This document shows positions 3,622 to 52,189 of a stretch of DNA of 64,000 nucleotides, one piece after another (the first letter of the stretch is position 1; each line of letters opens with the position of its first letter). Origin of the DNA: Rhynchobatus australiae (taxonomy: Eukaryota); contig JAUZTB010000087.1 in assembly GCA_034780895.1 (NCBI GenBank), forward strand, positions 48,662,741 to 48,726,740, read 5' to 3'. The translations under genes and the position numbers were made by a program. The notes under the pieces are model-generated. The model worked only from the letters and a program-made list of their open reading frames with translations, searched no databases and was not told the DNA's origin.

Positions 3622-3955
3622 TGGTGGCACTGTGGTGCAGCTGGTAGAGCTATTGCCTCGCAGATCAAGCGAGCCAGGTTTAGTGCTGACTGTGTGGAGT
3701 TTGCCCCTTCTTTCTTTGGCTGCCTGAATTTTCTCCAAGCATTCAAGTTTCCTTCCACATCCCAAAGACTTGTGAGTTGGTAGGTTAATTTGCCAATATA
3801 AATTGCGCCACTGTCTGAGTGAGTGGTAGAAACTGGGGGGATATGATGGAAATGTGGAGTGAATAAAAATGAGGGATTAGTGTAAATGGGTGCTTGATGG
3901 TCAGCATGGACTCAGTGGGCTGAATGGCCTGCTTCATTGCTATATGACTCAATGA
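3622..3955 (+). mobile_element. tRNA-derived V-SINE/HE1-like SINE
   Basis: Head 'ggtggcactgtggtgcagctggtagagc', core 'tgtgtggagtttgc...ccacatcccaaagac', CR1-like tail 'gtgggctgaatggcctg'. Confidence 0.75.
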
Positions 3956-4649
3956 CACTAATATAAGTAAAGAAGGCACTGTTTTCCTTCAAAAAACAAA
4001 ATTCTATCAGGATCTCCATCTGCATAAGTGTTACAAATTGAAAGTATTTCCACTTTTTGTGAGAGCTTCCTTTTGAAGGGAACAATGCAATGGTCAATTA
4101 TGACACGCTTCCATCTCATTTATTAATCTGTCAGGCATTAAATTGACTGTCAAAGGGGAGGTAAAGGAAAGGACCATTTTGAAATCAAGTGAAGGCTTTT
4201 TAAGGATTGTTCATTCCATGCTGTCACTGGATTTATAGTGCGTAATGAATGACATGTCAGCATTAATGGACAAGAATAAATGACTATGCTAATTCTGAAA
4301 TTTGCTTTAGTTTAACCCTGTGTTTACCATAGTCAGTGAGATGAAATGGAAAAAAGTCATTAGTCCTATCAAAAGCTCCATTAAGTTACATACTCATTCC
4401 AAATCCTTCATAGTTTTGATGGGACTAAAAGCCAATAAAAGTAATTTCTTTGGGGTGAAATATTCCATTGCCCTCTGTCAATGTTATTCAGGCTTGCGCT
4501 CTGCAAGAATTGGGCTTTGTCTCTTTGAGCCCTCCTTCTCAGGGTATGCATGCATATATACATGCATCTGAGGAAAGAATTTCAAGTTATACAGCACCTT
4601 TAATGACCTCAGTATGTCTCAAAGCGCTTTGTAGCCAATGAGAAATAAT

Positions 4650-4935
4650 GTGAGTCACGTTACAGGCTGGAGTCCAATCGAGGGATTCAGATGATTTTTA
4701 TATGCAAAGATGAATGCATGGGAGTTTGTATTCAGCTGTAGTATAATTGAGAGGTTNNNNNNNNNNNNNNNNNNNNNNNNNNNNNNNNNNNNNNNNNNNN
4801 NNNNNNNNNNNNNNNNNNNNNNNNNNNNNNNNNNNNNNNNNNNNNNNNNNNNNNNNTAATTGAGAGGTTGAAATATTGATAAAAAGAAATCTGGGAGTGA
4901 GTTACAGACTGGAATTTAAGTGATTTACATCACAG
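4650..4935 (+). repeat. Two degenerate copies of a satellite-like motif
   Basis: 'gttacaggctggagtccaatcgaggg' (~4659) and 'gagtgagttacagactggaattt' (~4895) flank a 100-N gap. Confidence 0.35.
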
Positions 4936-5514
4936 GTGTGAAGTTTGAGTGGTTTATAACTATCAGAGAGAGAAACAAAGCCATGCTTACATGAATGCTG
5001 TTCTGTATGGATTCTTTTTTATCAGATTGGGATTTGGATATTGAGTGGAAACTGTTTTCTCGCCATCTACATTTTCCTTGCATTCTGCTAATGCCATTTC
5101 AAAGAAATTGCTACCATCATTAGACCTTGCACTTGTAATCCTCATGTGTCTGGGGAGAATTGATGGGAATGTGGTGAGAATATATTGTGTTATTTTAGGA
5201 TTAATGTGACAGTTGGCACAGACTTGAGGGGCTGAAGGGCCTCTTTCCATGCAGTATGACTCCATGACTCATATCTGAGTGGGTTTTCTCAGTGAATAAT
5301 CACTACAGCTATTTTTTGCACTGGATTGAGATAATTTAGCCGTCAGCCTTTCACTGGATTTACCTGTGATATATTTAAAGCTGACAATACAGAACTATAT
5401 AATAGGCTACACGTTGCCTGGTTGGAGTTTATTTATGCTGTTTCTTTTCTAACATCCTGCAGGTTTGGACTTAAGATCATGGGCTACTCAACCTATCAAG
5501 TGCTTGTCTGACTG

Positions 5515-5812
5515 CAGAGAGAATGCTTCCCCTGGCTGAAAAGCCGAGGACCAGGGAGCACAGTTATTTTGCAGGCCGTTTAGGACTGAGTTGAGTATGA
5601 ATTTCTTCACTCAGAGAGTGATGGCAAACATTTGAATTTTTCCACTCTGGAGTGCTGTGGAAGCTCAGTCAAGTGATCATTCAAAATTGAGATTGATAGA
5701 TTTCTGGAAATCGAGGATTACAAAGATCTTGCTAGAAAATGGTGCTGATTTTAATGAGCAAGCACAAAGAGGTAGATTGCCTATTCATGCTCCTATTTCC
5801 TATGTTCTTAAG
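5515..5812 (+). mobile_element. CR1 3' end
   Basis: 'tttaggactgagttgagtatgaatttcttcactcagagagtg', 'gagattgatagattt' and terminal 'gctcctatttcctatgttct'. Confidence 0.65.
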
Positions 5813-5819
5813 ATTATGT

Positions 5820-6110
5820 TTAGCTGGGACACCAGAGACCTGGATCTGGATTCGATCCTGACATCAGGTGCAGTCTGTATGGAATTTGCACAGTCTCCCT
5901 TTGACCACATGGGTTTCCTCCCACATCCCAAAAATATGCCAGTAGATAGGTCAGTATGTCGGTGAGTGGTAAGATCTGAGGGAAATTGGTGAGTATGTGG
6001 AAAGAATAAAGAATAGGCAGTGTCGGATTTGTGTAAATGGATGAATTATGACTAGCATAGACTTGGTGGGCTGAGGGGCCTTCTGTGCTATATCTCTTTA
6101 TGGCTCTATG
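5820..6110 (+). mobile_element. V-SINE/HE1-like SINE
   Basis: B-box-like 'gattcgatcc', core 'gtctgtatggaatttgcac...gggtttcctcccacatccc', tail 'ggtgggctgaggggcc'. Confidence 0.65.
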
Positions 6111-6319
6111 AGACTCTGTTAATTAAAATGAATAGGTACAAATATGCAACTGTTGGGAATGCCAAAGCAGATATTGTCCTCTATTACTTTTTCAGTGTCA
6201 AATACTTGCTCGTCAGGTTTCAATTACTATTCACCTTGCTCATTTAATGCTGTATCTATTACTAGCAATTTGCCTGTTGTTTCAGATGGCTTGAGCAGTA
6301 CTCCAAAGCTCTCACACAA

Positions 6320-6590
6320 TCTGGGGCAACTCTCCAGCATAGAACCGAGAGTGTTTCCCATCGTATCAAATATTTAGCCATGGCCTATCTAGGAGGGTAT
6401 AAAAGATTCCATGAAACTCTTTGTAGAATGCTTTCCCAAGTCCTTGCCTGTGTTGCCACAAACAGCAAGACTACAAACTCATGAACTAATGTTTCTACTA
6501 AATTACTATTTGCTGTGTGCAAATGGGTGCACCTTTGCTGAAATTAGAATGGTATTTTGACTTTGACAATGTGCTTTATAAAATAAGCCA
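6320..6590 (+). mobile_element. Degenerate DeuSINE-like fragment
   Basis: 'taaaagattccatg', 'tttgctgtgtgcaaatgg' and 'gctttataaa' are colinear with the copy at 37565-37985. Confidence 0.4.
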
Positions 6591-7759
6591 GTGTAATGTG
6601 CAACACTTTCACCTGAAGACCATTTCCCAGATTTGCTTTCAGCTTAGTTTGAGTTTCAGAATTCATTTAAAATTATGATGAGAGTGAAAATGAACATCAC
6701 AGGAAAGAAAACCATGTTTTTCAGTCTACTTATTAACATCTGAACAGCATACTCAGTCTCTTAGTTTACAAGGCCCTCATGACAGAAACTAAAACAAATG
6801 AGACATATGAGTGGTATTAATAAATGATTCCAGCAGATACATAACTCCACACCTAGCAGTGACTCTAACAAATGTCTCACATTCTCCCTTTTGAGCTGCT
6901 GGTAGCAATTTTGATGTTTTCAAACAGATAAGGTGGGGCCTTCACATCTGCTATTTTGGTTTCTGTATTTTGGTTCCCCCTTTTGATAGAAACTAATAAT
7001 AGCCAATGGTAATCTAATCTGATCATCTGGAGCAGAAGCAGAATTTCTGGCTGTTTTTTATTTCTAAAAGCGCGCGTTGTGCATCTTCTGAGAAAGTTTA
7101 GTTTGTTGTCCTTTCCTCTTCCCTCCTCCCTTTTAACTGGATGTGTAACCCTATAATCAGGCATCGACTAGATCCAGCTTTTGAATTTGACCATGTGTTG
7201 GCGAGATGTACAAGGTAGTAGCTTGTTGCATCAGACGCCAAAAGGAAGGTTAGAAAGGGCAGTGTCAGCATTGCACTCAGAACGTCAAATGATTTGAACA
7301 ACTTAAGGGTTTTAATGGCAAAGATAGAAATGGTCTGCAACAGATATACTTACTGCCAAAGTGTGACCACATTTCTGTGGGTAACCTTGTGACATTGCAA
7401 TGGGACTATGCTGAATAGGCAGTTTCTGATAGAGCTAGCTGAAGATGATAGTACTGGCACTTTAGGATATTGTTAGTGTCTGGAATTAATCATAGAAGAT
7501 GTTACTCTATGGAGAATTCTTTTGGGGGGGGGGAAGAAAAGCTTATTTTTTGATGAGGAACAAAATTGTTATTTGTTTCCGAGAGGCATTCATCAAATTC
7601 TGCAAGTAATTTTCTAGGGCTCTTGTTGGGCTGGATTTAAATTAACCCTGTGAACCTTTGTAAACTGCTCTATTTGTACTGCTCAACACTTCCTCCTGTA
7701 AATAACTCTAATCATGAATAAAGCTTTTAATAGTTTCAAGAACCCTGCAGCCCCTCCAG

Positions 7760-7930
7760 CTTTCACTAACTTCGGTCCACTGGTGGCTGTGTCTTCAGAC
7801 GTCAAAGCATTGAGCTATGAAACTTGTTTCTTGAACCTTACTGCCTTTCTCCCTCTCTCTTTCTCTTCTTTGAAGACTCTCCTTAAAATTTATCCCTCTG
7901 AGGGAGCTTTTGGTCACTTGATCTAACATT
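7760..7930 (+). mobile_element. L2-type LINE 3' end
   Basis: 'ggtggctgtgtcttcag...tttgaagactctccttaaaa...gcttttggtcac' is typical of L2 3' ends. Confidence 0.5.
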
Positions 7931-8047
7931 TCATGTTCTGTGTCGCTGTCTTCACTAATTTTTTGAGCCAAGGCCACTTTGGCAAAATACATTGAACATG
8001 AGAGTTACGTTAAACTACAAAATTAACACTTCGCTTACTACTTGTCA

Positions 8048-8612
8048 GGTTAAGTTTATTGTCATATGCACAAGTATGGTGAGGTACAGGTACAATTAAA
8101 AACCTGTTTGCAGCAGCATTGGAACACAGAGAACATAAATTTTACATAAATTATACAAGACAGCGAAGAAAAAACTGTGCAAAACAAGATATTAGTGCAA
8201 AAACACAATTATAAACAAGTCCATGGTAGTGCAGGAAGTGGTCCACAGTGTTCCATTGCTGAGGTAGGATTAGGGTTGTGCAGGTCAGTTCAAAAACCTG
8301 ATGATTGTAGGAAAATAGCTGTTCCTGATCCCTGGTGTTGTGGGACTTTAGGCTTCTGTACTACATGCCCGGCAGTAGCAGTGAGAAGAGGGCATGGCCT
8401 GGATAGTGGGGATCCTAGATGATAGATGCCACCTTCTTGAGGCAGTTCTTCCTGTATATGCTTTTGATGGTGAGGAGGGCTATCCCTGTGCTCGACTGGG
8501 CTGTGTCCACTACGCTCTGCAGCCTCTTGCATTCCTGTGCATTGGAATTACCATACCAGCCCATGATGCAACCAGTCAGGATACTTTCCACAGTGTATCT
8601 GTAAAAATTTGT
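8048..8612 (-). mobile_element. Rex1/Babar LINE, C-terminal coding region plus 3' UTR
   Basis: Minus ORF 'LTNFYRYTVESILTGCIMGWYGNSNAQECKRLQSVVDTAQ' is the characteristic Rex1 C-terminal region; the tail ends in 'gacaataaac'. Confidence 0.85.
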
Positions 8613-8619
8613 TAGTGGC

Positions 8620-9094
8620 GTGCTCTCTCTCTTCCTGTTGTACTTCCTCATTCTACTTCTCATTCTATCTCACTTTCCCTACCCCTCTCTTAATATATTC
8701 CTCTCTCCCCCTCCCTTTCAACCATCTCATTCTCTCCATCCACTCAATTTATTTTCTTCTCTTATTTCCTCCCTCATTTCTTGTCATCTTTCCTTCTGTG
8801 CTCCTGTTATTTTTCACTCTTGCTCACTCCCCTCTGCTTTGCTCCTTGCCCAGTTACACTGAGCTTATCTGAAATCTCTCTCCTGCAGTTAATTCTTCGT
8901 CTCAGTTTATCTGTTTTTCTGTCACTCTGTCCCTCTGTGTCTATTGATTTCAATGTCCTGTTTAGCTGTCTCTCTTACTCCACCACTCCCTAATATTGCT
9001 CTGATCCAATCTCATCCAATATCTCCCTATCCCTTTCTCAATATCTTTCTTCTTGTGCCTTTCTTCTGTATTTGTGTACTGCTTTCTGTTGCTC
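8620..9094. repeat. Pyrimidine-rich (CT) low-complexity tract running into a ~1 kb gap
   Basis: Strong C/T bias on the plus strand; overlapping ORFs are only L/S/F/P-rich. Confidence 0.7.
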
Positions 9095-10089: not shown

Positions 10090-10910
10090 CACCCTTTCCA
10101 TTGCTGACCCCTCAATGATGACTGGTGTGTGTTCTTCCAACTTCCCCTTCCTGAAGTCCACAATCAATTCCTCGGCCTTGCTGATGTTGAGTGTGAAGTT
10201 GTTTTTGCAACACCACTCAATAGCCAATTGCTCTCACTCCTGTACACCTCCTCATTGCCATCGGAGATTTTACCAACAACAGTGGTGTCATCTGCAAATT
10301 TATAGATTGTGTTTGAGCTGTGCCTAGCACGGTCATAAGAGTAGAGTAGTGGGCAAAGCACGCACCCTGGAGGTGCACCTGTGTTGATTGACAGCAAGGA
10401 GGAGATGTTATTATTGATCCATGCTGACTGTGGCCTCCTGATAAGGAAGTCAAGGATCCAGTTGCAGAGGGAGGTGCAGAGGCCTAGATTTTGAAGCTTG
10501 TTGATTAATACTGAGGGGATGATGGTGTTGAACAGTGAGCTTAAATCAATAAACTACAGCCTGACGTATGTTTTGCTGTTGTCTAGGTGCTCCAAATCAG
10601 AACAGAGAGTCAGTGAGATTGTGTCCACTGTAGACCTGTTGTGGTGCAAAGCAAATTGCAGTGGGTCCAAGTCTTTGTTCAGGCAGGAGTTAATCCTAGC
10701 CAGAGCCAGCCTCTTAAAGCACCTCATCATGGTAGATGTGAGTGCTACCGGGTGATAGTCCTTGAGGTAGCTCACTCTGCTCTTCTTGGGCACTGGTATG
10801 ATTGCTGCTCTTTTGAAGCAGGCAAGAACCTCAGACTGCAGCAGTGAAAGGTTGAAGATGTCTTTGAACATTCCAGCCAGTTGGTCGACACAGGTTTTCA
10901 GTACCCGGCC
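10090..10910 (-). mobile_element. Rex1/Babar LINE reverse transcriptase region
   Basis: GRVLKTCVDQLAGMFKDIFNLSL...IIPVPKK...YHPVALTS...LDPLQFA; [15 protein letters not shown]; catalytic '[10 protein letters not shown]'. Confidence 0.9.
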
Positions 10911-11063
10911 TTTTATGAACGCTTTGAAAGGGACAATAACACTACACCTGTTTGCGTCCCCACAACATCTGGCGTCCCTGTGATCTCTGTCTCGGAAGCT
11001 GATGTCAGAACATCGTTCAGGAGGGTGAACCCTTACAAGGTGTCAGGCCTCGACGGTGTACCT
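10908..11063 (+). mobile_element. Inverted 5' segment of the same Rex1 element
   Basis: Plus-strand 'AFYERFE...VSEADVRTSFRRVNPYKVSGLDGVP' is the sequence that directly precedes 'GRVLK' in Rex1 proteins. Confidence 0.85.
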
Positions 11064-13237
11064 AATGGATTACTGGAGCAAAAGGTCAGAATCGATCTGG
11101 CACTTCTTCAGAAACTTGGAAGAAATCCAAGTTGAGCACTATTTAGAAAGAAACACACAGTTTCATCATTGTGCATTGATTCCCATGTTGCTGGCCACAC
11201 TCTCACCCTCTGACTCCTGATCCCAGCCACACTCCAACCCCTGTCTCTCATTCCCTGCCATGCTCCAGCCCCCAGCTTCACACATGTCCCCCTTCCTGGC
11301 CAGGCACCAGCCACTGCCTCCTGATCCTGGCTGTGTTCCTGGCTACATTCCGGCACCCTGCTCCCTTGGGTCTTGCACTCAAGGTCAACACGAGGTGTCA
11401 CTAGCTCACAGGTCTTGCAATGAAGAGCGCTACTCTAGGGATGGAGCTCAATTTCCCCACAGTGAGAATGAGAGAAAGGGCGGCAAAACTGCCAGGTAGC
11501 AACAAAAGCTGTGTCTCAATGAAGACAACAGTTATCAGTGACTCATGTTTTTAAAACAGATCTTGAATAATGTTTCAACTGTTTCAAAACAATTTATTAT
11601 TTTCAACATTTCTAAGAGGCCTGTGAGAAAGCTAATAACTGATAATTTTGAAACAAAAAGAAACCTTCAAAATTGGAACAAAAATATAGAGAGCTTTTTT
11701 TTAACAAGATTAAAAGTCAAATCCAATTTTAATATATGCATCGAGAGGAGAGGGAATTAAAATCTGTGTTAAAAGTCTTCCAAAGCCTGTAAATAAAATA
11801 CTAAAACTAAGATCAAATTATTTCTGGGAATAAAACAGTGTGGCGAGCGGCTGAGAGAAAGATGCAGAGCATTCAACCCCCAGAGAGGTTAGATGGATTG
11901 GCTGGAGGCCAAGATAGACCAAATTATGGCCTGTTGGAGCAATGGGCTTGTTATACTGAATGGCTTTCTCTCATGCAATGCTTAGTTTTTGAACCTCAGT
12001 TTTTTTTTTCTCTCTCACATTTGTTTGACATTTTATTTTACTGTCTGGCTTCAGCTGCAGAAGAAGCGATGTTGAGGTTCTCTGGAGGAAGTGATCATAG
12101 ACTCACATCAGGATGGAAGCATTCTTGATTACCAGCCTCTCCTTTGTGCAGCTCTTGCTTGTCACAGGATTAGCAACCACAGCTGTTCAGAACTGAAATT
12201 AGTTTTCCACATTTATTGTTTACTTTGGCTTCCTAATGCAGAGCTTGGATTGTGCAACTCTAATAGCTTAAACAGTTACCAGATCACAGTGTAGAATGCC
12301 AACTAAGTCTTACAAAACCCTGGTGTTTCTTTTAAACAGCACCAGTATATTTTTTCAGACAAATGTTTATAAAATTAGACATATGTTGATTTCCCAACTG
12401 GCTAGTATTTTAAGGCACTGGATAACAGAATGAGAGNNNNNCAGATTCATTCACCAGCCCATTCTAGGGTAGTTAATCCAAGCTGGGGGCCAATAGATGT
12501 ATCATTCTTGTCCTGTGAATCATCTTGGGAAGTTCTTCTGCATTAAGATATTACAGAAATGCAAGCTGTATGTGCTCTGTCTTTGACAGATAACTGTTTG
12601 ACTGGCTTGATGAAGTATTAGGCTCTACGGATGCATCGATCAATCATTGGGAAGTATTTGCATCTCTCATCAATGCTTCAGTTGGCTATATGTTCTCCTC
12701 CCTGCATTTTCGAAAGTTATCATTTACATGCCATTGACAGATGCCAAGACTTGTCAGAGAATCATGAACCTTTGGATTTATCTGATTGTTAATTTCATTC
12801 AAACATGAAATACGACCTTACAGGAATCCATTGATCTTTGCACATTGTTCGCTCACTGCAGACTGACAGAGGACCACTGGTGAGATGTAAGCCAGCAACT
12901 GCTGCTGGAAGCAGAAATAAACATAGGGAGTTCTCCTAGTTTTACTGTTGAGGAATAGCTGATAAGATCATCTTCAGGTGATGGACTGCCTCCTTGAACA
13001 GTTACGATCCTTGTAGTGTTAGGTAGGGACTTCCAGATTTAGCTCCAAATGCGATTTATAGAATTACTGAAAACAATGAGTTTCCTAGCTTCCCTGTCAA
13101 AAATCAAGTTACAAAGTGCTGAAAGTGAACTTCCAAGTTCAATAAAACCAAAGGTATAATAATTGAGAATAAAGCCTTCTGTATGTAATAAACTGGATAT
13201 TTCTCTTAATTCACTTTTGGGATGTACATGTTGCTGA

Positions 13238-13560
13238 TATGGCAAGTAGAGCTGTTGTCTCCCAGCTCCAGCAACCCAGGTTCAATTCTGACCTGAGGTG
13301 CTTTCTATGTGGAGTTTGCATATTCTCCCTGCAACTTTGTGGGTTTCCTCCAGGGCTCCAGTTCCCAGCCACATCATGTACTGAGTTAATTAGTTATTGC
13401 AGATTACCACTGGTGGAAGTGGGTGGTAGGAGATTGAGGGTGGAGTTGATTGATATGTGAGTGTGAATAGCTGCAGGGAAATAAGAGGGGAGTGGGACTG
13501 ATGGGAATGCTCTCAAAGCTGACTTGATTGGCAAAGTGCCCTCCTTCTTAAAGAAATAAA
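13238..13560 (+). mobile_element. V-SINE-like SINE
   Basis: 'cagctccagcaacccaggttcaattctgacc' (B box) and core 'tgtggagtttgcatattctccc...gggtttcctcc'. Confidence 0.65.
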
Positions 13561-17540: not shown

Positions 17541-18449
17541 GAATCAGCGAGAGTTAGATAATGTTGCTGAGACAGAAATGGAGGCCAGACCCAAACGGAA
17601 ATGCTGGAGATTGCAGATTAGTTTGCTGTCGATGGTGTGAACGGCTAAGGAAGTCATTGATAAACAAGCATGAGGCTGTAAAATCAAAAGGATTACATTT
17701 GGAATTTCTATTGCTGACTACAAAGCCACCCCACAGAGCATTAATCTGTAACTAATATTTTCCTACATTAGGGGCCTCAGGATGCTTGAATGCCTGTTGA
17801 CATGTAATTCATCACAGAATAAGCAATGAAATAGGTTAGACCAGTGGTGGTCCCAGCCCTGCTGATCTCCCAAGTTGAAAGCAGCTCAATTGCTTTCCTC
17901 TGTGGGTTTGTAACCAGCAGGCAGCTGCTCCTGTGATGGAAGGCAAATGAATCACTAATAGTAGATTGGGTCTTATTATTCCTCTCACTTAACACTGTTC
18001 TTTGTGCCACATATTGGTGCAATGTGGTTACCACTGGCAACTCCTGTCCTCACTCTGCTATTCTCCTTAGATGTCACAAGAGCATTGAAAAGGCGGGCTG
18101 TGGAATGTGTATGTAGGGACGATCCAACCCAATGAGGTGGTGCCCCAACCTTAACTCTCAATCGCAGCCAGTAATTGCAAAGGGGAAAACAGCACTTAAA
18201 CAATGGCTTTAATGTAAGGAAATGTCCGAAAACAATTTGCAGGAGAGTTATTAAACAAAATTGAGCTACACAAGGAAATATTAAGAAGCTTCATCAGAGG
18301 TAGGTTTTCAGGACTATTTTAAAGGCAGAAGGAACAATGAAGAGGTTGATGGAGTAAAATCCAGAGCAAAGGACCTTTGCTGGTGAAGGCAAGGCTACTA
18401 ATGGAAGGGTTGGAGGAGTGGACCTGGGTGGAGGTGGGAGACGAGGGCT

Positions 18450-18880
18450 TATGTCTCACAGCTCCAGCATCCCAACTTTGATCCTGACCTCCGGTGCTGC
18501 GTGTGTGTGGAGTTTGCACATNNNNNNNNNNNNNNNNNNNNNNNNNNNNNNNNNNNNNNNNNNNNNNNNNNNNNNNNNNNNNNNNNNNNNNNNNNNNNNN
18601 NNNNNNNNNNNNNNNNNNNNNTGCGTGTGTGTGGAGTTTGCACATTCGGTCAGTGACTTAATGGAACTTACCAGCTGCTCTGGTTTCTACTCACATCCTA
18701 GAGCTGTGCTGGTTGGTGGGTTAATTGGTTACCATGACACTGAGAAGGTGGAGAATCAGGACAGAGTTATTGGGCATGTTAGAGAAATTAAGTCACAGAA
18801 ATAAATAAAGGAATGGGTTTGCTCTGTGAGCTGGCATGGATTTGATGGGCTGAATGGATTTCTTCTCTGTCATAAGGAAA
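18450..18880 (+). mobile_element. V-SINE-like SINE (gap with duplicated flank inside)
   Basis: 'ctcacagctccagc...gatcctgacctccggtgctg...gtggagtttgcacat' and tail 'gatgggctgaatgg'. Confidence 0.65.
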
Positions 18881-21139: not shown

Positions 21140-21226
21140 TAAAAACAAAACATGCTGGTCAGGCAGCATTCATGGAAAGAGAAACAGAGTGAATGCTTCA
21201 AGCTGGTGATGTTTCATCAAAACTGA
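21140..21226 (-). mobile_element. Penelope-like terminal fragment inside gypsy pol
   Basis: 'ggtcaggcagcattcatggaaagagaaacagag...tttcatcaaaactg' matches the other PLE-like copies. Confidence 0.6.
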
Positions 21227-21914
21227 GCACTGCAATACCATTCCGGCCTACTCGAAGGCTAAATTGTAGATATTTAAATTGGGATCATCCAAATGGTGTG
21301 GTAGGTGTTGTTGGCAGTGAAGACTCTTCACTTAGCTTCATAATCCAGTACCCGTTTCTGGCATTGAGTTTATTGAATATATTGGTCTCTGCCAATGCTG
21401 GCTTGATTTCTTCCAGATTTGGGGTTGGATAGTGATCCCTTTTGACTGCTTGATTCAGACCATTTTGGTCTAACCATATCCTTAGTTATCCATATGTTCT
21501 CTCAGCACAATGGAATTCATCTAGTCTGTAGTTTTAGTGAATTTAGCCAGCTTTTGGAGTTCCTTTCAGGCTTCCTCTTCAGCTTAATTGGTTCCATAAA
21601 TTGCAGATGTATTATTGGTTTAGCTTGAGGATCAGTAGTGATATGATATCAACATTTTCAAATCATCCAATAGTTTGGTTTACGTCTACTTTGCTTCTCA
21701 ATTGGCATTGTACTTTCAATTTTCATTGTTGTATTGCCCACTTCCTGGTTAATTGAGATCAACTATGGTTCTTTACAACTTCTCATACTCAGGATAGCAG
21801 GTCCTTCTGTTTCTGTGACATACAACATGCAGTTAACGTCATGCCCTTCGTGCATGCCACCGTTGGGTTGTCCAAGTTTTGGAATTCTACCTTTTCCAAG
21901 CATTGCCAGTATGA

Positions 21915-22013
21915 TCCAAAAAGAAGATTCAGGGAGAACTCAGTGGGTCAGACAGCATCTATGGAGGGAAATGAACAGCCAACATTATGAGCCAAGACCT
22001 TTCATCTGGACTG
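21915..22013 (-). mobile_element. Penelope-like terminal fragment inside gypsy protease region
   Basis: 'aactcagtgggtcagacagcatctatggagggaaatgaacagcc...ttcatctggactg'. Confidence 0.65.
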
Positions 22014-23200
22014 ATGTTGTTTTGTTTCAAGACATTATATTTAGTATACCCATCTTTGTTCAGGTTTTCAGGGAAGACCTTCTAGTAAAACCAGTCAGAT
22101 GATGTTACTTTAAGTTTCGGTATCCAGATTTTAGCATTAGGTTTACAGTGGTGGGTTTGCTTCTTATGCCTGTTCGGATCTGGGTGGAGAGGAATGGGAA
22201 TGTTGAATGTAATTCCTCTGATAACTGCCACACATAATCACTCTATGTATATGTATTGTTCCAATATTTAGTCCGTGCTTGGACTCTACATTTTCCACAA
22301 TACAGATGTTCTAGTTTTGAATCTTTTGTACTGATTTTTTGCTCTTGTTCCTCCATGTTCTCAATATGTTTTCCTTTTTTGATTTGCACATCCTTTCCCA
22401 ATGTTTGAGCTTGCTACAAAACCTGCAGATTGATCCACATGTAAGGCACGTGCTTCTCTCTGTGAGTTCATCTAGTCATCTACATCTGCTCTACAGCCTT
22501 CTTTTAATCAGCTTTTTATTCTTTTGATTCTGTTACTGAATTGCGTCACCATTGTTTTCTTTCCCATGACTGTTCAGGATGTAGGATGCTTGAGTATTTC
22601 AGCATTTCCATTGGTCTTCTTGCAGCTTCCTGTGCTGTTACTGTGTCTATAGTTTGTACCACAGTGGACTTTACCTTACTGATTAAAGAAATCTGCATGT
22701 TTGAGTATATGAGTTGGTCCACTACGTTTTACCTATTTCCCTCAGTCTACCTTACTAGCTGTGCTTCTAGGTCCTGGAAAGAAATCATCAACAATTGCCT
22801 CAGGATTCAGAATTTGTATCCATATATCCAGTCACTCAATCACAGCCTGAAATATGCACTGAAAATTTCCACCATCGCATCAGGAGTTTTACTTTTGTCC
22901 TCGCACATTTCTCAAGCGCTGAAAAGATCTAATCCTTTCTCTTCTGTCCACAAAAGGATATAACTGGCATTGTCTTCATTATTCATACTTTTCAGAAAAC
23001 TACTGAAGGTCAGCTTTTTAAAAAAGTTTTCTGGACACCTCCATAACATCACCGGCTTCCCAGTCCATTATGGGTTGCTGTCATGAAGAGATTGTATCTA
23101 TTTTTCATCCACAGTCACCATAAGCTAGATTTGATTTATGTTTAATTCGGCATTCACGTGGTTCATGTAGCAGAGATTTCTATCACTTTTATTCATTTAA

Positions 23201-28499: not shown

Positions 28500-28682
28500 T
28501 CAGACTATCTGAAACTTCCCAAGAAGTTTTCCTTCTCTCTCTTACCCTCAGTCCTGATCAGGGGTTTCGACCCAAAACATTGACAACTCCTTTCCTTCCA
28601 CAAATGCTGCTCAACGTGCTGAGTTCCTACAGAAGATTGTTGCTCCAAATTCCAGCATCTGCAGTATCTTGTGTCTCCTTTC
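28500..28682 (+). mobile_element. Penelope-like terminal fragment with decayed hammerhead
   Basis: 'cagtcctgatcaggggtttcgacccaaaacattgac...atgctgc...gctgagttcc...ttccagcatctgcagt'. Confidence 0.7.
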
Positions 28683-29206: not shown

Positions 29207-29345
29207 AATGTGGGAGGAAACCGGAGCACCCGGAGGAAACCCACGCAGACACAGGAGAACGTACAAACTCCTTACAGACAGCAGCGGGAATCAAACCCAG
29301 GTCACTGGCGTTGTAATAGCGTCGTGCTAACCACTATGCTACTGT
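29207..29345 (-). mobile_element. V-SINE head/core
   Basis: Near-identical to the heads at 56965 and 58443 ('gtggttagcacgacgctattaca...gtctgtaaggagtttgtacgttctcc'). Confidence 0.8.
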
Positions 29346-32300
29346 ACTGCTACTCCTGCTCCTTTTTTCTTGTGCTCTTGTGTCTGAGCTTCAGAAACCT
29401 ACCAGCTAGAGGATGTATAGTGTGGAGATGCGTTTTGAGCATTTAACATATTCAGGAGTCCCAGCTAACTGAAAAGAAGGGCATGACAGCAGGAGTTTGT
29501 TTGCTAATGAAGGTCTGGCTCAGAAAGTAGCTCCCATGGGATACTAATGACACCAGATCAACTGTCTTCTGCAGCTCTGATGCATTTTTCCTCACTAACT
29601 GGATTAAAGTCATTACTGAATAGATTAGCCCTCTATATAGACCATAGCCTAATGAGCCTGTTTGCCTGAGGCTGAGCTCCAATGTAAGGCCAAAGGGCAG
29701 ATTGGCAGTGGGTGGAAGAATCATTTGTTGTGTCTCCTCAGGATGTTTGATTGCTGGCTAAGAATGGAATTCTTTAAAATAACCAGAATTCAGACGTGGG
29801 CTTTACTTAGCAGACTCCCAGCAGAATCCTTTCAATCCATGTTTTGCAGTGCACTTTTAGGATGTGATTATATTATGATCCTGATTATATTAGGATCTGA
29901 CTAACATGCATTAAAAGCAAACTATTTTCCAGCAAGTCTTCAGTTCTGTAAAACAAAATATGGGCAGATTCTGGAAATCACTTTGCCTTCTGAAAATGTA
30001 GTTAGAACCATATTCTTGCTGCCTTTCATATCTTCCTGATGGATCAGAATTTATAATTGTTTTAATCGCAAACATATGGCGGGCTGATATGTTTCAGTTC
30101 CAAACTTCTATAATCCATTCCAACTGGGATGAGCTTGGTACATCTGAACCAATGCTGGGAGAGAGGGACAGTGTGGGTAAGTAAGTGAAGTATTGTTAGC
30201 AACTCCATTTCAGGGATTCCTGTTCTTTGTGTAATGTGGTCCAATTTATTGACTCATTTTGACATCTGTCAGACAGAGAGGCAGGAGTGACACTTGGAGC
30301 CACCTGAACACAGGGATAGTGGGCAAAATAGCAGAAGGTGATTGTTATTTGTCTTTAAAGACTATACTCTACAGGGAGGCGGGATTGCATCTGTCCTGGG
30401 AAGGTAAGTGGGAGGGAGGCAGAGTGAGGAAGAATTAATTCAGTGGGTCTCTCATGATAGCCCATCATAGAACAGCATTACCTCTGACGCCCAATCCCCA
30501 AACAATTTGATCCCATTCAGGCCCATCTTGTCAGGAAACTGGGAAAGAAGAATATCCCTGGATACATCCTGAACCACCATGCAAAGGGATGGTTAAATTC
30601 CAGAGCACTGTTGTATGCGAATTGAGAGATTTGGGATATATTGGATTTTGGGCCTTGGAACATGCTGCTATGTTGGTAGACCTTTGTAGGAGGCTATATG
30701 GCTAAGTGGTCAGGTCATATCACAGGGACTGGAGGAGTCAGCTGGGCTTTGGGGACCATTCAAATCCAAAGCACCTACCACCTGCTGTAGGCATGGTTAA
30801 CTTGTTTCTTTTGTTTGCCGTTTTCTCTGGCGGCTGGCATACTTTTGGTAAGATGGCTGTGCATGTTTCCTGTGCCAATAACCTCCCGAGGTTGCAAAGT
30901 AAATTAGTAGCCATTGCTTGGCACAATTCAACATGAAAGATCATTACAATGCAAACAACAAAATAAAATAATTTTGAGACAGAAAGGGCCAGAAGTTGCA
31001 TTCCCACACTTTAATGGAATTAAAACAATGCTGCAGAGTAGCTGAACTTTTTGTGAAAATTACATAAGGAGTGAAATGTTCAAGAATGTGTTTTACTGCG
31101 CAATATTGCTGGGTTTACTAGTGTAATACTGTACAGAAAGTGAGGTTGTAAATTTCAGCCTGGTGTTCCCGAATGATGTGTTTCATGTTCTCAGTGCTGT
31201 TGTCATTTAAACTCTCAGGATCATTCTTTGCAGCCAGTTCTTAAAGGGACATACCACAATATAAACAACACCTTTCCAGCTACTGAAAGGATAGATACTG
31301 GTAGGAGGCGAGAAGTAAGAGGTAGAGTACTCATGTGGGCCAGGGGAACCTGGACAGACTGGTAAAGAACAGTGCCTACTCAAGGTATGTCCTTCATTCA
31401 ATGGGAGGTGTGAAAATTCTCTAGAGCAACAACTAGGTGCTCCAGGAAGGAGATTGCCAGAGAGGTCGCTGTAAGGACGCATATTGTCTCTGATGCTTGC
31501 ACTTTGGGGAAGCCTGCAGTAATAACAAATGCCCATTCCTGTTCTCCCTGCTCCTTTGGGCTGAAGGAACCATAAATGAAGTCTCCTCTCCTTGGGTATG
31601 GATTTTGGATGACCTCCTTAAAGCAGCAGTGAGCAGAAAACTGTGTGGTATGGCAGAAATCAGCAGCAGTAGCTGAAATAGTCTTGAGACTTAGAAGTAG
31701 AGATTGACCATGACTACAACGTCCATTGGCAAAGCAGTCCAGGAACACGTTTTTGAGGCAGCATTTGTGGTTGCAGGAGGTCAGGGATGTCGGTGTGGAC
31801 AAAGAATGCATTTGAGTGTGGATCCTTCAAATAACATTGTTTCAGGGAAGCAGGGAGTGTGAAAACTTGTTGTTCTGTGAGTAAATAAAAATTGAACCTT
31901 TAGATTAGCAAGGTTGAAAATTTCACTGTAGACAAATTTTGCAATCTGTTCCATTGCAGCACTACACCTTGGGAGAGTTTTGTACCAGAAAAAAATTACC
32001 AGAAGAATTAAAACTTTCACCAAAATAGTCAGGAGTTGAGTTTCCTGACTGGTGCTATGACACCCAGAAATGTGTGCAGAATTGCTCCATTCCATGTTCC
32101 ATTTCAACTGCACTGTACATTTTTTGGAATTCTCTGAAGAATCAAGATACCTGTTACATTGGCCTTGGACAAGATGAGGAGGAAATGGAGGACTTCGCTC
32201 CTTTAGTGGTGTCTTGGATGACTGCAGTGGCTGGTGTGGAACTAATCATAATGTTTGGGATTCACTGCTCTGTGCTCAGCTGGCTGATCTCAGACAGGCT

Positions 32301-37985: not shown

Positions 37986-38379
37986 CACAGCAGGAAACTG
38001 CTGATGTCTTACCCAAAACCACTGAGATAAATTATTTCTTTCTCGCTGCTGATTGTTAGATTGGTGCATCTCCAACTAGGCAACATTGACTGTATACAAA
38101 GTTATGCTGCTGCCTGTGGAACAATTTAGAGGTTGCAGAAGCTGTGGAAAGAGCTACATAACCGCAATTTGTGTCTTTCTTCCATATCTTATAGCAGGGT
38201 AATATGCACGTCACCTTGACTTTGTCCCAGTGATGGATAGTACAGGATAGGATGTTTTGGCAGAGAAGTCTCCAATCTTGCTTTCTGTTTCATTGCCTTT
38301 CACAGTACATGTTACAGTGGTGACTGGATAAGTCTTTTGGAAATAATTGGTAACAGAGTTGAATAGAAGTATTAATTAT

Positions 38380-38480
38380 AACAAAAAACAAACTGCTGGA
38401 GTAGCTCAGTGGGTCAGGCAGCATTTGTGGAGGCAGAGGGATGGTCGATCTTTCAGGCCAAGTCCCCGTATCTGGACTCT
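38380..38480 (-). mobile_element. Penelope-like terminal fragment
   Basis: 'tgctggagtagctcagtgggtcaggcagcatttgtggagg...gtcgatctttcaggcc...tctggact'. Confidence 0.65.
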
Positions 38481-38871: not shown

Positions 38872-39125
38872 GTGGGGCAGTAGCTCAGCAATTAGTGCTG
38901 CTGCCTCACAGCTCCAGTGACCTGGGTTCAATCCTGGCCTCGTGTGCTGTCCTTGGGGAGTTTTCATTTTCTCCATATGACTGCATGTGTTTCCCTGGGT
39001 GCTCCAGTTTCCTCTTGCATCCCAAGGGCATCCAAGTGAAATTCTTTGGTTTCCACACATGCCGACACTACTAGCAACAGACTCAATACTGGCTGCTTGT
39101 TTGATGGTGAGCATTGTCTCCTGCA
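38872..39125 (+). mobile_element. V-SINE-like SINE
   Basis: 'ggggcagtagctcagc...cctcacagctccagtgacctgggttcaatcctg'. Confidence 0.65.
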
Positions 39126-39429: not shown

Positions 39430-40100
39430 AGGATCTCGGAAAAGAAGCTTATTTACAAAAAAACTTCCTTGATCTCGGTATGAACTACTTTTGAAGCCTG
39501 ATCTTTGTTGTAATGAAGGAAACACAGCAGCCAAGTTGTAAACAGCAGCTCCCACAATCCGCTCTGATTACTTGTCCCAGCAATGATAGTTGAAGAATAA
39601 ATATTAGCCAGGACTATGGAAAAACTCTTTTGTTGGTCTTCGAAATTGTGCCATAGAACGTGTTATAGTCAAATGAAAGACACAGTTTAATGAAAAGTGA
39701 GGCCCCCAACAACTCAGTTGCTCCTTAGCATTGGTTTGGAGTATCCACCAATTTTATGTACTCAGGATTATGAAGAGTGAGATCAAAACAGAAAATGCTG
39801 GAAACATTCGGCAGGTCAGGCAGCATCTGTGGAAGGAGAAACAATTAATGTTTCAGGTCCAGGACCCCTCATCAGAGAGAGAGAGAAAAATGAGTTCATT
39901 TTCAGAAACAGAGAAGGTGGGGGAGGGATAGATAGAACAAAGGGAATATCTCTGATAGGGTGAGATCAAATGGGTGCAGGGGAGCAGTTAGAGTAACAGT
40001 TAGCACAACATTAAACATCTTTGTGTAATCTAAAGAGTGGGACTTGAGGCCAGAACTGCTTGGTTTACTAGAGAAAGTGCTACCTCTGAACTTCAGCTGG
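39430..40100 (-). mobile_element. DeuSINE-like SINE split by a Penelope-like insertion
   Basis: Tail/core 39430-39770 ('aacagcagctcccaca...taaatattagccagga') and head 40035-40100 ('gagtgggacttga'). Confidence 0.5.
39780..39965 (-). mobile_element. Penelope-like terminal fragment with hammerhead core
   Basis: Minus strand reads 'CTGATGA G GGGTC CTG GACCT GAAA CATT', followed by 'cacagatgctgcctgacctgc...ccagcattttctgtttt'. Confidence 0.7.
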
Positions 40101-42489
40101 TACCAGGAACATTGACCTGGGACTGACAGGATTGCTCTTCCACGAGCAGGAGTAGCACTGATGGGCTGAGCGGCCTTCTATACCTTAACAAGTCTATAAT
40201 GCCACCGAAATGCCTAAAGCCTCAGCCATGTCAGATTGATCCAGATGCCAAGTTGGATGTGAGAAAGATCTTGAAGTTACATTTTTTTCCTCATCTGCTT
40301 GCTCCATGTATTAAATCCCATTGACCTCTTGAGCCCAACACCCATGTCAAAAGATAGAAACGTCTTTAACTTATCAAAGCTCAGAAGTTAAAAATGTGAA
40401 GAGAACAATTTCTTGACAAGATGTAAACCCTGCTATGTCTTTTCCAGAAGGCCTGTGTTTAGCTTTATTTATTTATTTATGAACCAGCCATCTGCAATCA
40501 CATTCCATTAGCGTTAATGTAGAAACAGAAAGCGCTTTAGTGCCAGCCCAGCACCCAAAACTGCAAGCGAATAAATCATCCTGGAGCAATATCCAGGCTG
40601 CCTCTGCAGGTGACTCATTGATTATGCTATTAGCTTCATGCACAGTCTAATGTCAAACTTAAACACTCCACATTCATTATGATTGCTTCTCCTGAAGTAA
40701 TATCACCTTATTAGCCATGACATGAGAAGCATTCTGTTTTCCAGGCTCTTGTTTCCTGCAGGAATACTGTACCTTGTTAGATGTGGAATTGCATTTATCA
40801 AACCTTCTTCCCTGACAGGAACTCACTGCGCAGCACTGACACACACCATCAGTCATTGTTTTACAGATTGTGACTTTTAACCCTATGTGACTGTGAATGC
40901 CCCACTCACTATCAGCTGTGGTTTGCCCCTGTGTTGGGACAAGGAGGAAAGCAAAATATTTTAAGCCGTTGTGAGGGGCATTCACACAATTATAATGAGG
41001 GCAGGTCATCAGAGTGCAGTGGTGCCTGCTCTCTGTCCATGTTTGTCCAGACTTAAATGATGGACTGAAGTGTACAGGGGTTGAATGACCAGGAAAACCA
41101 TACACTCAGTATATTTGCTGTACAACTGGTGAGTAGCATGTACAATGGTGAGTGGCATGGGGTATATACAATAAGGACAGGGTAATGGAAGAAGCTTATA
41201 ACAATTGGGAGGATCAATTAGCACTGTAATTACCAGTGTTAATAGAGGCAGAAACTTGAACGCATACACATCTTTTTCCATTATGAGCACGTAACTCTCG
41301 ATGATCACCAATGTGTGTCCATGCTGTATTGATAATCACTATTTTAAAACTGTACCAATAATTGTCCAGTGCCAACAGCGTGCCTGCAAATGGCACATAG
41401 CTAACAAATGGAATGAAGAAGCAGTGCAAAAATTCAGTTGTCTTTCTGCAGAGATTGAAATATATAGATCCTTCTATTTATCGTCACTGTGACTAATTGG
41501 TGTGGAATGGAGACAAAGTCATGCACCATGGATTGGAGCTGCAAGCAGCTCTAAGTAAAGGCATCCCTGCTCCAAGCACAAAACCTGGGCATCCTAAATC
41601 ATTTCCCATTCTGTCCCATTGTACAGAATGCTTGATCCAAGTATAGCAGTTAATACAGAGGACAGGGCCAAGTCAGTAAATATTCCCTTCCCCAATAGTT
41701 TGTTTTTATTTCTATGTAGATTAAGTATAGCCTGAATAGTGCAAAGTATTGGAGAGAGCAGGATATTTTTGAAGTTTAATCACTTTTGGGTAAATTATAA
41801 ACTTTNNNNNNNNNNGTTGCATGTTTCTGAAGAACTGTTTTTTCCTGTTGAGAGAGAATTGCTAATGATTAAGATCAAAAAAACCTGCAGATATTGGAAA
41901 TCTGACATTAAAACAGAACATGTCAGAAACATTCTGCTTTGCTTTTAATTAGAGTTTTATTTATTTTTGTTCAGACCCTTGTATAGGCATAGGCCACATT
42001 ATACTAATAATTAAGAAATGTGATGTTTAGAATGGGGGTGAGACCCTTGCAGTGCAGGAAATAGTGATGTGGATAGGAACCCCGGTTCAAGTTGCATGGA
42101 AAATTTGTTCATTATGAACATTAAAACACTCCCCCAGCTTCATGCCGCATTGGAGCCAATGGACCACAAGTTTGTTCACATAACCCCCTCAAAACACAGT
42201 GCTAAAAATCAGAAATTTTGCACATATTTCTGGGTATAACAGCACTCATCCTGAAACGTGTTCCTTCTTTTTTGGAGGGATTTCCATTCTTCCTCACACT
42301 TTTTTTAGTGTGGGAATACTCCCCCAAATAACAACACCTGAAAATTTCATCTGCAGTGAGATTTTCAACTGTACTGGTGTGGAATATGACAGTTCTTATT
42401 TAATCACAGAAAAAAAAAACAGGGTCTGCTGTAATGAAAACAGAAAAAGCTGAAAAGATTCAGCAGGTCTCATCAAATGGAAATATTCC

Positions 42490-42613
42490 CTTTGTTCCAC
42501 TCATCTGCTCTCCACCTTCTCTGCTACCGAAAACTAGTGTTTCTTCTTTCCCAGTCTGACAAAGCATCGCAGACCTGAAACATTATCTCTTTCCACAATT
42601 GCTGCTTGACTGG
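42490..42613 (+). mobile_element. Penelope-like terminal fragment
   Basis: 'ccagtctgacaaagcatcgcagacctgaaacatt...tccacaattgctgcttgac'. Smaller minus-strand pieces lie at ~41875-41935, 42425-42470 and 42738-42770. Confidence 0.55.
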
Positions 42614-43877: not shown

Positions 43878-44140
43878 GCACCACAGTGGTTCTGCTAGAA
43901 GTACTGCTGCCTCACAACTCCAGTGACATAGGTTCCAATCCTGATCTTGGGTGCTGTCAGTGTGGAGTTTGCACAGTCTCACTGTGACCGCCTGGGTTTC
44001 CTCCTATATCCCAAACACATGCAGGTTGGTAGGTTATTTCTCTACTGTAAATTTCCTACTGGTGTGTAGGAAAGTGGTAGAATTTGGGGAGAGTTGATGG
44101 GATTGTGGGTAGAATCAGTTAAATGGAAAATTAGTGGGGG
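43878..44140 (+). mobile_element. V-SINE-like SINE
   Basis: 'gctgcctcacaactccagtgac...gtgtggagtttgcacagtctc...gggtttcctcc'. Confidence 0.65.
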
Positions 44141-44224: not shown

Positions 44225-44350
44225 GTTAAAGGGGTGCTTGATCCGAAACATCAATTGTCCATTTCCATCCACAGATGCTGCCTGATCAGTTGAGCTCCCA
44301 GCATCTTGTTTTATCGTTCCAGATTCTAGTATCTGCAGTCTCTTGTATCA
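44225..44350 (+). mobile_element. Penelope-like fragment inserted in a minus-strand CR1 tail (44145-44460)
   Basis: 'tccgaaacatcaattgtccatttccatccacagatgctgcctga...tatctgcagtctcttgt'; CR1 tail 'cataagaaaacaggagcagaaatagacca...ccattcaa' resumes as 'atggctgatct'. Confidence 0.6.
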
Positions 44351-44784: not shown

Positions 44785-44958
44785 TTTATGTTTCTGCCCA
44801 TCATCCTTCACCCCTCCTCAGTCCACCAATCACCTTAAGCTCCTGTCTAACCACTCCCCGTCTTCTTTTAATACTAGCTATCTCCCTTCTCCAATCTCAG
44901 TCCTGATGCAAGGTTTTGACCCAAAACATTGAGAATTCCTTTCCTCCCACAGATGCTG
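44785..44958 (+). mobile_element. Penelope-like terminal fragment with decayed hammerhead
   Basis: 'cagtcctgatgcaaggttttgacccaaaacattga...cccacagatgctg'. Confidence 0.65.
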
Positions 44959-49856: not shown

Positions 49857-51517
49857 AGAGTCAGAGAGTTATACATTTCAGAAACGGGCCCTTCGGCCCA
49901 ACATGTCCATGCCGACCAAGTTACCCAGCTGAGCTAGTCCCATTTGGCTGTATTTGGCCCATATCCTGCTGAACCTTTTCTATCCATGTACTTGTCCAAA
50001 TGTCCTTTAAACATTGTAATTGTACCCACTATTACCATTTCCTCTGGTAGCATGTTCCACATACCCACCACCTTCTGTCCCCGTTAAATCTTTCCCCTTT
50101 CACCTTAAACCCAAACCCTCCAGTTTTAGACTTCCCCACCTTGGAAAAAAGATTGTGACCATCCATCTCATTTAGGCCCCTCAGAATTCTATAAACATCT
50201 ATAAGGTCACCCCTTTGCTCCAGGATAAACAGTCTTAACCTATCCAATTCCAGCAATATTCTTGTGAATCCTCTCCACTCCCCCTCTAGCTCAATCACAT
50301 CCTTCCTACAGCGTGGTGACCAGAGTAGCACACAATACTCCAAGTACAGCTTGTACAGTTGTAACATGACGTCACCAATTCCTGTACTCAGTGCCCTGAC
50401 TGATGAAGGAAAGTGTGCCTTATGTCTTCTTCAGCACCTTGTCCAAATGTGTTGCCACTTTCAGAGAATTATGTATTGTACCCCTTTGTCTCTGTTCTAC
50501 AATACTCCCCAGGACCCTGCCATTCACTCTGGATGTCCTGCCTTGGTTTAACTTCACAAAATGCATCACTTTGTACATGTCTGAGTTAAATCCTATCTGC
50601 CATCCTTTGCCTACTTTTCCAGTTGGTCTAGATCCCGTTGTAACCTCAGACATCCTTCTTCAATGTCCACAAAACCACCAATTTTGGTGTCATCCGCTAA
50701 CTTACTAATCATGCCACCTATATTCTCATCTAAATCGTTAGTGTATACAACAAACAACAGGGGACTCAGCATGATTCCTGTGGCACACCACTGATCACAG
50801 GCCTCCATTCTAAAAAACAACCATCCACTACCACCCTCTGACTCCTAGCACCAAGCCAATTGTGTATCCAGTTAGCTAGATCATGTGATCTAACCGCCTG
50901 GATCAGCCTACAATCCAGGACCTTGTCAAAGGCCTTGCTGAAGTCCATGTGGACAGCTTCTACCATCCTGCCCTCACCTATCCGCTTGGTCACCTTTTGA
51001 AAGAAATCATTCTAACTTGTGAGGCATGATTTCTCACACACATCACCATACTGACTGCCCAAAATCAGTCCTTGCCTTTCCAAATGCAGATAGATCCTTT
51101 CTCTCAGAATCCCCTCCAGTAACTTTCCCATCACCGTTATTAATTTCACTGGCCTGTGGTTCCCTGGCTTGTTCTTGCAACCCTTCTTAAATAAAGGCAC
51201 ACCATCAGCCACCCTCCAGTCTTCTGGTATCTCACCCATGGCTAACAAAGATACAAAAATCTCTGCCACGACCTTAGCAATTTCTTCCCTTGCTTCCCAC
51301 AATGTCTCAGGGTACATTTGGTCAGGTCTTGGGGATTTATCCCCCTTTATGCACTTCAAGACGGCCAACACCTCCTCTTTCATGTCAAACTGTTTCAGGA
51401 CATCACTGTTATCTTTCCTGAGCTCTCTGGCTTCCATGATCTTCTCTATGGTAAATACAATCAAGATTCACTTCCCTGAGCTCACTAGCTTCCATGACCC
51501 TTTCCATGGTAAATACA
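49857..51517 (-). mobile_element. 5'-truncated CR1/HER1 LINE (RT to 3' end)
   Basis: 'DKSPRPDQMYPETLWEAREEIA...PEDWRVADGVPLFKKG', 'MDFSKAFDKV', 'WRPVISGVPQ', 'SKLADDTKIGG', 'LEYCVLLWSP', and CR1 tail. Confidence 0.92.
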
Positions 51518-52189
51518 GATGACTTACATCTAGAGGTTTGCCAATACCAGTAATTTGTTACAGCCAGTTTATGGAATTCTTGCTGAAGGAGTGCATGTGT
51601 GTGCACATGTGTGCCTGCAATGCCATTAAGAATGGCTGCACCATCTTCAGTATCAAGCCTTATGCATTTTGTGCTTGAGGGTCAAGTAAGTGCAAATGAA
51701 AGGACAACATGGTAATGTTTGCAGGGGGAGAGACTGGGTAATGTAAGCAGTTAACCCCCTCATCTTCTGACATCTGCCACTCTCCAATTCTTATGATTCC
51801 ATTCCTAGCCAGGCTGTGTTACACATTGCTGAATATTGAGATGTACATCGGAGAAAGTGTAAGGAAACAGATTATTGGGCAATTGAGGGCATCAGACAGA
51901 CCATGTTACATAGTAACATAATAAGCTTCTCATTATGTCCTATAGGGTTTCAGTGTAGATACTTCCCTCTTAATAGAGGGGAATGTTTGAGTAGGAATTA
52001 AAACAAGAGTGACTTGAATCCCTTGGGTTCAGGATGATCTCCCTTGCAAGCTTTATTTTTCAGTGGGCCCTCAGGTCACAGGGGAATTGATCCGAAAGGC
52101 TACAGACATCTGGCCAGATGTACAAGGTGTTAAAAGGCAGGATTAGGTTGCAGTTGTTATGAGGCTGCTTTAGGTCTTTCTTTTACTGG

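Follow-up and report, generated by a model that had tools for sequence, protein, structure and literature searches.

Minimal hammerhead ribozymes (min-HHRs) are a known feature of the pLTRs of metazoan Penelope-like elements (PLEs). In the available portions of Cervera and de la Pena (2014, PMC4209133), these are described as having a CUGANGA-H core with an extra base before G10.1, a G10.1-C11.1 pair, a GAAA box, a loopless palindromic 15.2-16.2 and a short helix I; their copies are mostly single, truncated and widespread, and full elements carry them at both ends. As excerpted, Craig et al. (2021, PMC8557442) describe EN+ PLEs of the Neptune clade as encoding a reverse transcriptase (RT) followed by a C-terminal GIY-YIG endonuclease, with a C-x4-C-x2-C linker, and list 5′ truncation, adjacent inverted copies and a 30–40-bp tail as PLE hallmarks. 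In PAc, the Anolis Poseidon element, a pLTR hammerhead lies near the start of the ORF, which begins within the ribozyme, reverse transcription starts within the ORF, two adjacent 3′ termini correspond to two reverse transcription start sites, and no RNA reads end at the cleavage site (Frangieh et al., 2024, PMC11167929, accessible text). Short hammerhead variants of PLEs are described as dimer-dependent and weak (Lunse, Weinberg and Breaker, RNA Biol 14:1499, as summarized in a review), and PLE-derived type I hammerheads also occur in vertebrate genomes as non-LTR retrozymes, which consist of tandemly arranged units whose ribozymes are intact (Li et al., 2026, preprint, in part).

Judged by its sequence, the dispersed repeat of Rhynchobatus australiae analyzed here is the min-HHR of metazoan PLE pLTRs, in a Neptune-like shark or ray family. 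It shares the PMC4209133 features listed above, the domain order, linker and hallmarks of PMC8557442, and with PAc a pLTR hammerhead close to where the ORF begins, a pair of adjacent 3′ termini and, in a weak test, the lack of RNA reads ending at the cleavage site. Unlike the published min-HHRs, helix II is 4 bp only, and the 56 representatives given in PMC4209133, as far as that text was available, include no shark or ray. Unlike the retrozymes, the copies are dispersed, truncated and mostly broken. The repeats are very probably 5′-truncated terminal fragments of PLEs carrying the known pLTR hammerhead, with the copies in the window decayed and predicted not to cleave. The original prediction, made from the letters of this DNA, thus identified the family correctly and overcalled its non-autonomy and novelty. 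A literature search, outside which most subscription papers fell, returned no paper treating PLE hammerheads of sharks or rays, and none on variants at A9.

Repeat copies in the 64-kb window

The window is the whole stretch of DNA that was analyzed, 64,000 nt of contig JAUZTB010000087.1 (positions 48,662,741 to 48,726,740, forward strand). A profile built from natural copies detected 11 fragments below E=1e-4, plus a weaker twelfth (E=0.052), in line with the approximately 12 counted by eye, while the best match in the reversed window had E=3.1. The six copies cited originally beside the focal one were recovered at their positions and strands. Apart from the focal insertion, the fragments were as follows, with subfamilies as defined below:

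799–837, + strand: 3′ end fragment without ribozyme (E 6.5e-5)
21154–21227, − strand: subfamily E copy, ribozyme heavily decayed, absent from the original list
21914–22015, − strand: A-group copy, A at core position 4, G12 lost
38376–38478, − strand: subfamily C copy with C at position 9 and further damage to the core
39778–39876, − strand: subfamily E copy, core letters intact, stem I and stem III palindrome broken, ~97 nt of upstream homology
42431–42469, − strand: likely inverted partner fragment just 5′ of the 42548 copy (weak profile match, E 0.052; repeat family D9)
42548–42612, + strand: E-like copy without G8, interrupted by an assembly gap, homology extending ~77 nt upstream
44230–44322, + strand: A-group copy, truncated within the ribozyme, absent from the original list
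44895–44958, + strand: subfamily B copy, C at position 9 kept, G12 lost, gap-cut, ~111 nt of upstream homology
60169–60238, + strand: fragment adjoining an assembly gap (E 7e-6)
61454–61559, + strand: subfamily E copy without G12 and with a damaged stem II

The 64-kb window held no RT or endonuclease remnant of this element, and its copies are therefore linked to the ORF described below only via their subfamilies.

The focal copy

Three features were assigned at the focal locus:

28521–28541, + strand: likely short piece of the element's ORF-start region, just 5′ of the ribozyme
28547–28678, + strand: 5′-truncated 3′ end (pLTR) of a subfamily-B PLE, long 3′ tail included
28549–28584, + strand: decayed minimal type I hammerhead with a 3-bp stem I and a 4-bp stem II

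The insertion (profile match 28547–28642, E 8e-23) was assigned to subfamily B by columns outside the ribozyme, and its best genome matches, at 82–90% identity, were of B type. Re-reading the letters reproduced the layout first parsed at 28549–28584, with the exception of the "very short stem III": there is no intramolecular stem III, and 15.1-16.1 is a 4-nt palindrome that pairs only between two copies. The minimum-energy fold consists of exactly stem I (3 bp) and stem II (4 bp), whose UUCG loop is closed by a U-A pair. Because this fold was no more stable than those of shuffled sequences (z 0.22), the focal copy alone is not significant on structure, and because in addition an Rfam scan gave no hammerhead match at E≤10, the case rests on the family.

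In the focal ribozyme, position 8 is C (28559), 12 is A (28574), 16.2 is A (28579) and 17 is U (28581). With G8C and G12A, and with the stem III palindrome and C17 lost, this copy is predicted to be dead. G8 and G12 are both catalytic (PMC9901934, accessible text), and G8C abolishes cleavage by the anole PLE hammerhead, while such mutants still insert in vitro (PMC11167929, accessible text). Immediately upstream, 20 of the 21 letters of 28521–28541 equal the ORF-start stretch of locus L073; no score this high was reached by any of 2352 random windows or by any of the remaining 81 upstream flanks.

In most subfamilies, the ribozyme is closely followed on its 3′ side (28585–28610 in the focal copy) by a run of pyrimidines that ends in YAG and resembles a 3′ splice acceptor; its AG is absent in subfamily D and in the focal copy. 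PLEs have a 5′ intron near the ribozyme.

Genome-wide motif and abundance

The consensus originally drawn by eye proved right: the exact canonical minimal-hammerhead pattern had 441 matches, of A type, in the 2.23-Gb genome and its reversed control had 0. Exact E-type matches numbered 93 genome-wide. CUGANGA and GAAA boxes with U16.1-H17 are present at the family level and are the group majorities in A1, D and E, and intact copies have both the extra base between 9 and 10.1 and the palindromic 15.1-16.1. Natural copies folded into helices I and II, which were paired in 68% and 90% of cells, respectively, with every slid control lower; helix I spans 5 bp in A versus 3 bp in B and C. Intact copies match the PLE min-HHR consensus published in PMC4209133 (as accessible), and the assignment to minimal type I hammerheads was upheld. 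The extra nucleotide had been likened to that of a viroid; it does occur in the CChMVd (+) hammerhead (PMC3376415, in part), but it is no viroid oddity, being a stated hallmark of the PLE min-HHR (PMC4209133, in part).

It is extremely improbable that the hammerhead likeness arose by chance in a pyrimidine-rich repeat end. Such a chance origin would fit the absent Rfam match, a focal fold no better than shuffles and flat covariation statistics (stem covariation on a 12-row alignment was not above shuffles), but intact copies have every published feature of the PLE min-HHR consensus at the expected pLTR position, and stem pairs switch compensatorily between subfamilies. Pair 2.1-1.1 is C-G in A–D and U-A in 14 E copies, and pair 10.1-11.1 in E is A-U in 13, G-U in 11 and G-C in 3; these compensatory switches concern two stem pairs and few independent events.

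Abundance was estimated from 77 stretches of 10 kb chosen regardless of content (628,339 called bases). These contained 135 matches, or 215/Mb, with 0 in the reversed control. The window, at 186/Mb, is of ordinary density and not enriched. Scaling to the genome gave 3.9–4.8 × 10^5 fragments, so that the very high abundance first suspected was borne out. In the accessible part of PMC4209133, coelacanth and Xenopus have 4,000–9,000 descriptor matches, counted by a different method, versus about 4–5 × 10^5 fragments here.

Linkage to a Penelope-like RT-endonuclease ORF

At 2 of 20 loci with an intact motif, an endonuclease-like frame ended ~330 nt upstream. The genome was searched with that natural endonuclease peptide, and 150 of the 53,961 candidates were scored. 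Among endonuclease-selected loci, the repeat lay 59–342 nt downstream on the same strand in 9 of 19, the other 10 having gaps or contig ends. Over all loci, 27 of the 43 endonuclease ends had it within 700 nt; when only ends followed by 450 gap-free bases were counted, it stood behind 14 of 14, at about 300–350 nt, with 6/6 in the endonuclease-selected and 4/4 in the random-sample part of this subset.

Proteins homologous to the ORF come from rays and sharks and match GIY-YIG and RVT_1 in Pfam. Pfam gave no family for the degenerate L026 peptide itself, and the domain assignment therefore rests on the homologues. This linkage, together with the 14 gap-free endonuclease ends, supported the Penelope-like origin. 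A C-x4-C-x2-C linker between RT and endonuclease was found in the L026 peptide and in homologues P0001–P0004; by the linker motif criterion in the available text of PMC8557442 alone, this points to the Neptune clade. RT-endonuclease remnants run into ribozymes of B type (L187), A2 type (L186) and A1 type (L195, L182).

In 5 of the 25 loci selected on the 5′ part of the ORF, the ribozyme, its 3′ flank and the tail continue into a likely ATG, ~140 nt downstream of the cleavage site. From overlapping natural fragments, we infer that this ATG would open the RT frame. This position differs from that in PAc as described in the accessible text, and most 3′ ends lie before the ATG. The repeat was thus found on both sides of the ORF, behind the stop and ahead of the likely start, in different loci, and it is therefore a pLTR hammerhead. 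The layout of the element was pieced together from overlapping natural fragments; no full-length element with both pLTRs was among the 20 long loci or the 50 N-terminal loci.

Ray genomes annotate pieces of the PLE ORF (P0003, P0006, P0008, P0109) as isoforms of host genes, namely kinase domain 1C, mucin-2, chitinase domain protein and nicotinamide riboside kinase, which is either an annotation artefact or exonisation.

Fragment ends and truncation

Of 146 matches, 61 stop short of the ribozyme start and the other 85 reach −8 to 506 nt upstream (median 24 nt; 95th percentile of the control 13). This extent is continuous without a fixed boundary, and its longest examples enter the 3′ UTR and the endonuclease. 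Inverted partners within 600 nt were divergent for 44 of the 146 and convergent for 8. The 3′ ends are common to copies. Measured from an anchor, 24 of 53 fell at 7–33 nt and 27 at 45–71 nt, with none at 34–44, forming two groups ~35–40 nt apart. The ribozyme lies within ~100–140 nt of the 3′ end of the element, which is why the fragments are centred on it. The non-autonomous repeat that had been proposed is thus not supported, and the fragments correspond to 5′-truncated ends of RT/endonuclease elements without a fixed 5′ boundary.

The 5′ end lay no more than 15 nt upstream of C3 in 16 of 61 young copies and in or beyond the ribozyme in 18, and 5′ ends concentrate near the 5′ side of the ribozyme beyond a smooth truncation curve. 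Definition of the 5′ ends by the cleavage site was rejected, as the 18 young copies with ends in or beyond the ribozyme formed no cluster there. Transcription start or fold-back at the 5′ side of the ribozyme is a possible cause of the concentration.

Read-through copies L231, L238, L240, L241 and L249 begin at profile columns 8–18, toward the 5′ side of the ribozyme rather than at its cleavage site; in three, this start adjoins an inverted copy. Short two-part units, in which the first few hundred bases of the ORF are joined to the final bases of the 3′ UTR plus another ribozyme, were seen in L231, L236, L237, L239, L240, L247, L248 and L249. Their junctions differ each time and are likely template jumps. 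A same-strand pair of identical-looking copies 2.2 kb apart (C42; L051:5481-7823) was considered as a tandem element and rejected, since the two bracket a gap and are likely a duplicate created by the assembly.

Most of the short copies could instead come from a discrete non-autonomous element with a ribozyme, SINE- or retrozyme-like and derived from a PLE pLTR. We consider this unlikely. Units with two ribozymes spaced ~530–910 nt apart do occur among the 25 loci selected on the ORF 5′ part (e.g., L231, L240, L247, L249), the focal copy has its ORF-start piece just upstream, the young 5′ ends cluster as given above, and PLE-derived retrozymes have been reported in vertebrates (bioRxiv 10.64898/2026.07.22.740005, seen in part). 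However, the junctions of the two-ribozyme units vary by locus, the 5′ extent of the copies is continuous to 506 nt, into the 3′ UTR and endonuclease, and no tandem array came to light, the single close same-strand pair retrieved being the likely assembly duplicate.

Under the preferred reading, 5′ truncation of PLEs encoding RT and a GIY-YIG endonuclease, the element protein would prime reverse transcription about 55–115 nt downstream of the cleavage site, and reverse transcription would usually stop within 100–200 nt; this early stop would leave most insertions as stumps centred on the ribozyme.

Subfamilies and core variants

The copies had been treated as a single family. Here, 104 non-redundant copies with scores ≥30 (96 in the randomly chosen stretches and 8 in the window) were grouped by columns outside the ribozyme and formed at least five subfamilies: E (38 copies), B (21), A2 (16), A unassigned (10), A1 (7), C (7) and D (5). 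Non-CpG divergence from the group majority was 4.9% in D, 8.5% in A1, 10.3% in A2, 12% in B/C and 19% in E, values that set upper limits, since one group may combine several source elements.

Canonical cores characterize A1, D and E. C at core position 9 was found in 18/20 B/C copies versus 1/54 elsewhere (p 5e-14), and A at core position 4 in 8/11 A2 copies versus 6/59 (p 4e-5). CpG decay or random change as the source of C9 was rejected, exact matches numbering 86 with CA, 4 with CG, 12 with G and 3 with T, and random change as the source of A4 was likewise rejected, the first 100 of 194 matches having A in 64, C in 33 and G in 3. C9 in B/C and A4 in A2 are master-level traits. C, in 33 of the first 100 of the 194 position-4 variants, is more frequent than the A-to-G rate at position 9 would suggest; these variants possibly form a further small subfamily or reflect biased conversion. 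In the accessible part of PMC4209133, C9 or A4 is present in 0/56 representatives, which were found with a descriptor that demanded the canonical core.

B and C together account for 25 of the 96 sampled copies, or roughly 47,000–107,000 genome-wide. B-type and C-type ribozymes come after endonuclease remnants of their own, and in a small endonuclease tree two C9 elements group apart from the A lineage (support 0.918), with A2 not resolved.

One reading of these data, which we hold tentatively and lean slightly against, is that PLE lineages with a catalytically impaired hammerhead were each amplified to tens of thousands of copies. The impaired cores would be C9 with a 3-bp helix I (B/C, which have their own endonuclease lineage) and A4 (A2). 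In a mutational scan, as seen in part, single changes in the CUGA turn gave low activity (PMC9901934), and A4 is therefore predicted to be weak; by analogy with general core conservation (PMC3088659, in part), the change of A9 likely weakens the ribozyme. Alternatively, CUGAUG-C-A may itself be active, as a new core whose bulged base has shifted from behind A9 to in front of it.

Decay, activity and selection

The mismatch rate was 36% at CpG-type columns versus 7–14% in core, stems and flank, confirming the CpG decay first suggested. In groups A–C, G12 had become A in 44% of copies versus 36–46% for three other CpG guanines; G12 is thus lost at the neutral CpG rate, and inserted copies therefore decay neutrally. 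Among 68 copies spanning the core, the core was canonical in 10, and core, stems and palindrome were together intact in 1, with B, C and A2 types failing this test by definition. With the palindrome also lost in all eight window copies checked, the copies are probably inactive, as had been proposed.

Core divergence was 6.8% versus 12.6% in the flank, and a base-matched test restricted to groups B–E counted 38 core changes versus 68.5 expected; the lower divergence arises mostly in group E. The pattern would be expected from past selection on source elements that are pooled in the groups, and selection on some inserted copies, or alignment bias, may also lie behind it. It is very unlikely that the host keeps some inserted copies as working ribozymes, for example as a nearby pair cutting an intron as a dimer. 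The 441 exact canonical copies and the less divergent core would suit such use, but 441 among ~4 × 10^5 could have survived by chance in young subfamilies, G12 decays at the neutral rate, only that single copy of 68 is fully intact, and 0/8 window copies have the palindrome.

RNA-seq reads, from an organism not shown to be R. australiae, covered both strands, and the same reads gave no site where many molecules begin or end, which is a weak test.

Under the PLE-fragment reading, source elements with the canonical core (A1, D, E) would cleave weakly as dimers through the 4-nt palindrome, probably aided by protein. The ribozyme would likely not be needed for each round of insertion, because the changed-core subfamilies B, C and A2 were also amplified.

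Neighboring repeats

A second abundant dispersed repeat (families D1–D7, D13, I1), which we take to resemble the elasmobranch HE1 SINE, was seen in the window:

3630–3955: second repeat
5848–6081: second repeat
13232–13381: second repeat
18444–18860: second repeat
29207–29350: second repeat
38878–38988: second repeat
43884–44125: second repeat
56968–57135: second repeat
58311–58424: second repeat

Broken frames at 10164–11042 (−), 50032–50551 and 51012–51522 resemble, by eye, RT and endonuclease remnants of non-LTR (LINE) elements.

Significance

These results extend a known PLE feature to a cartilaginous fish, in which it is extremely abundant; the copies in the window are fossils. According to the available portions of the respective papers, the PLE hammerhead may simply parasitise PLEs (PMC8557442) and is not needed in vitro (PMC11167929). 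The changed-core subfamilies are a natural experiment, offering ready-made variants on whether cleavage matters for mobilisation. If lineages with impaired ribozymes were indeed amplified, their spread would be evidence, from evolution in vivo, that PLE retrotransposition can for a short time do without cleavage; A1 and D, the youngest lineages, would nonetheless have kept the canonical core.
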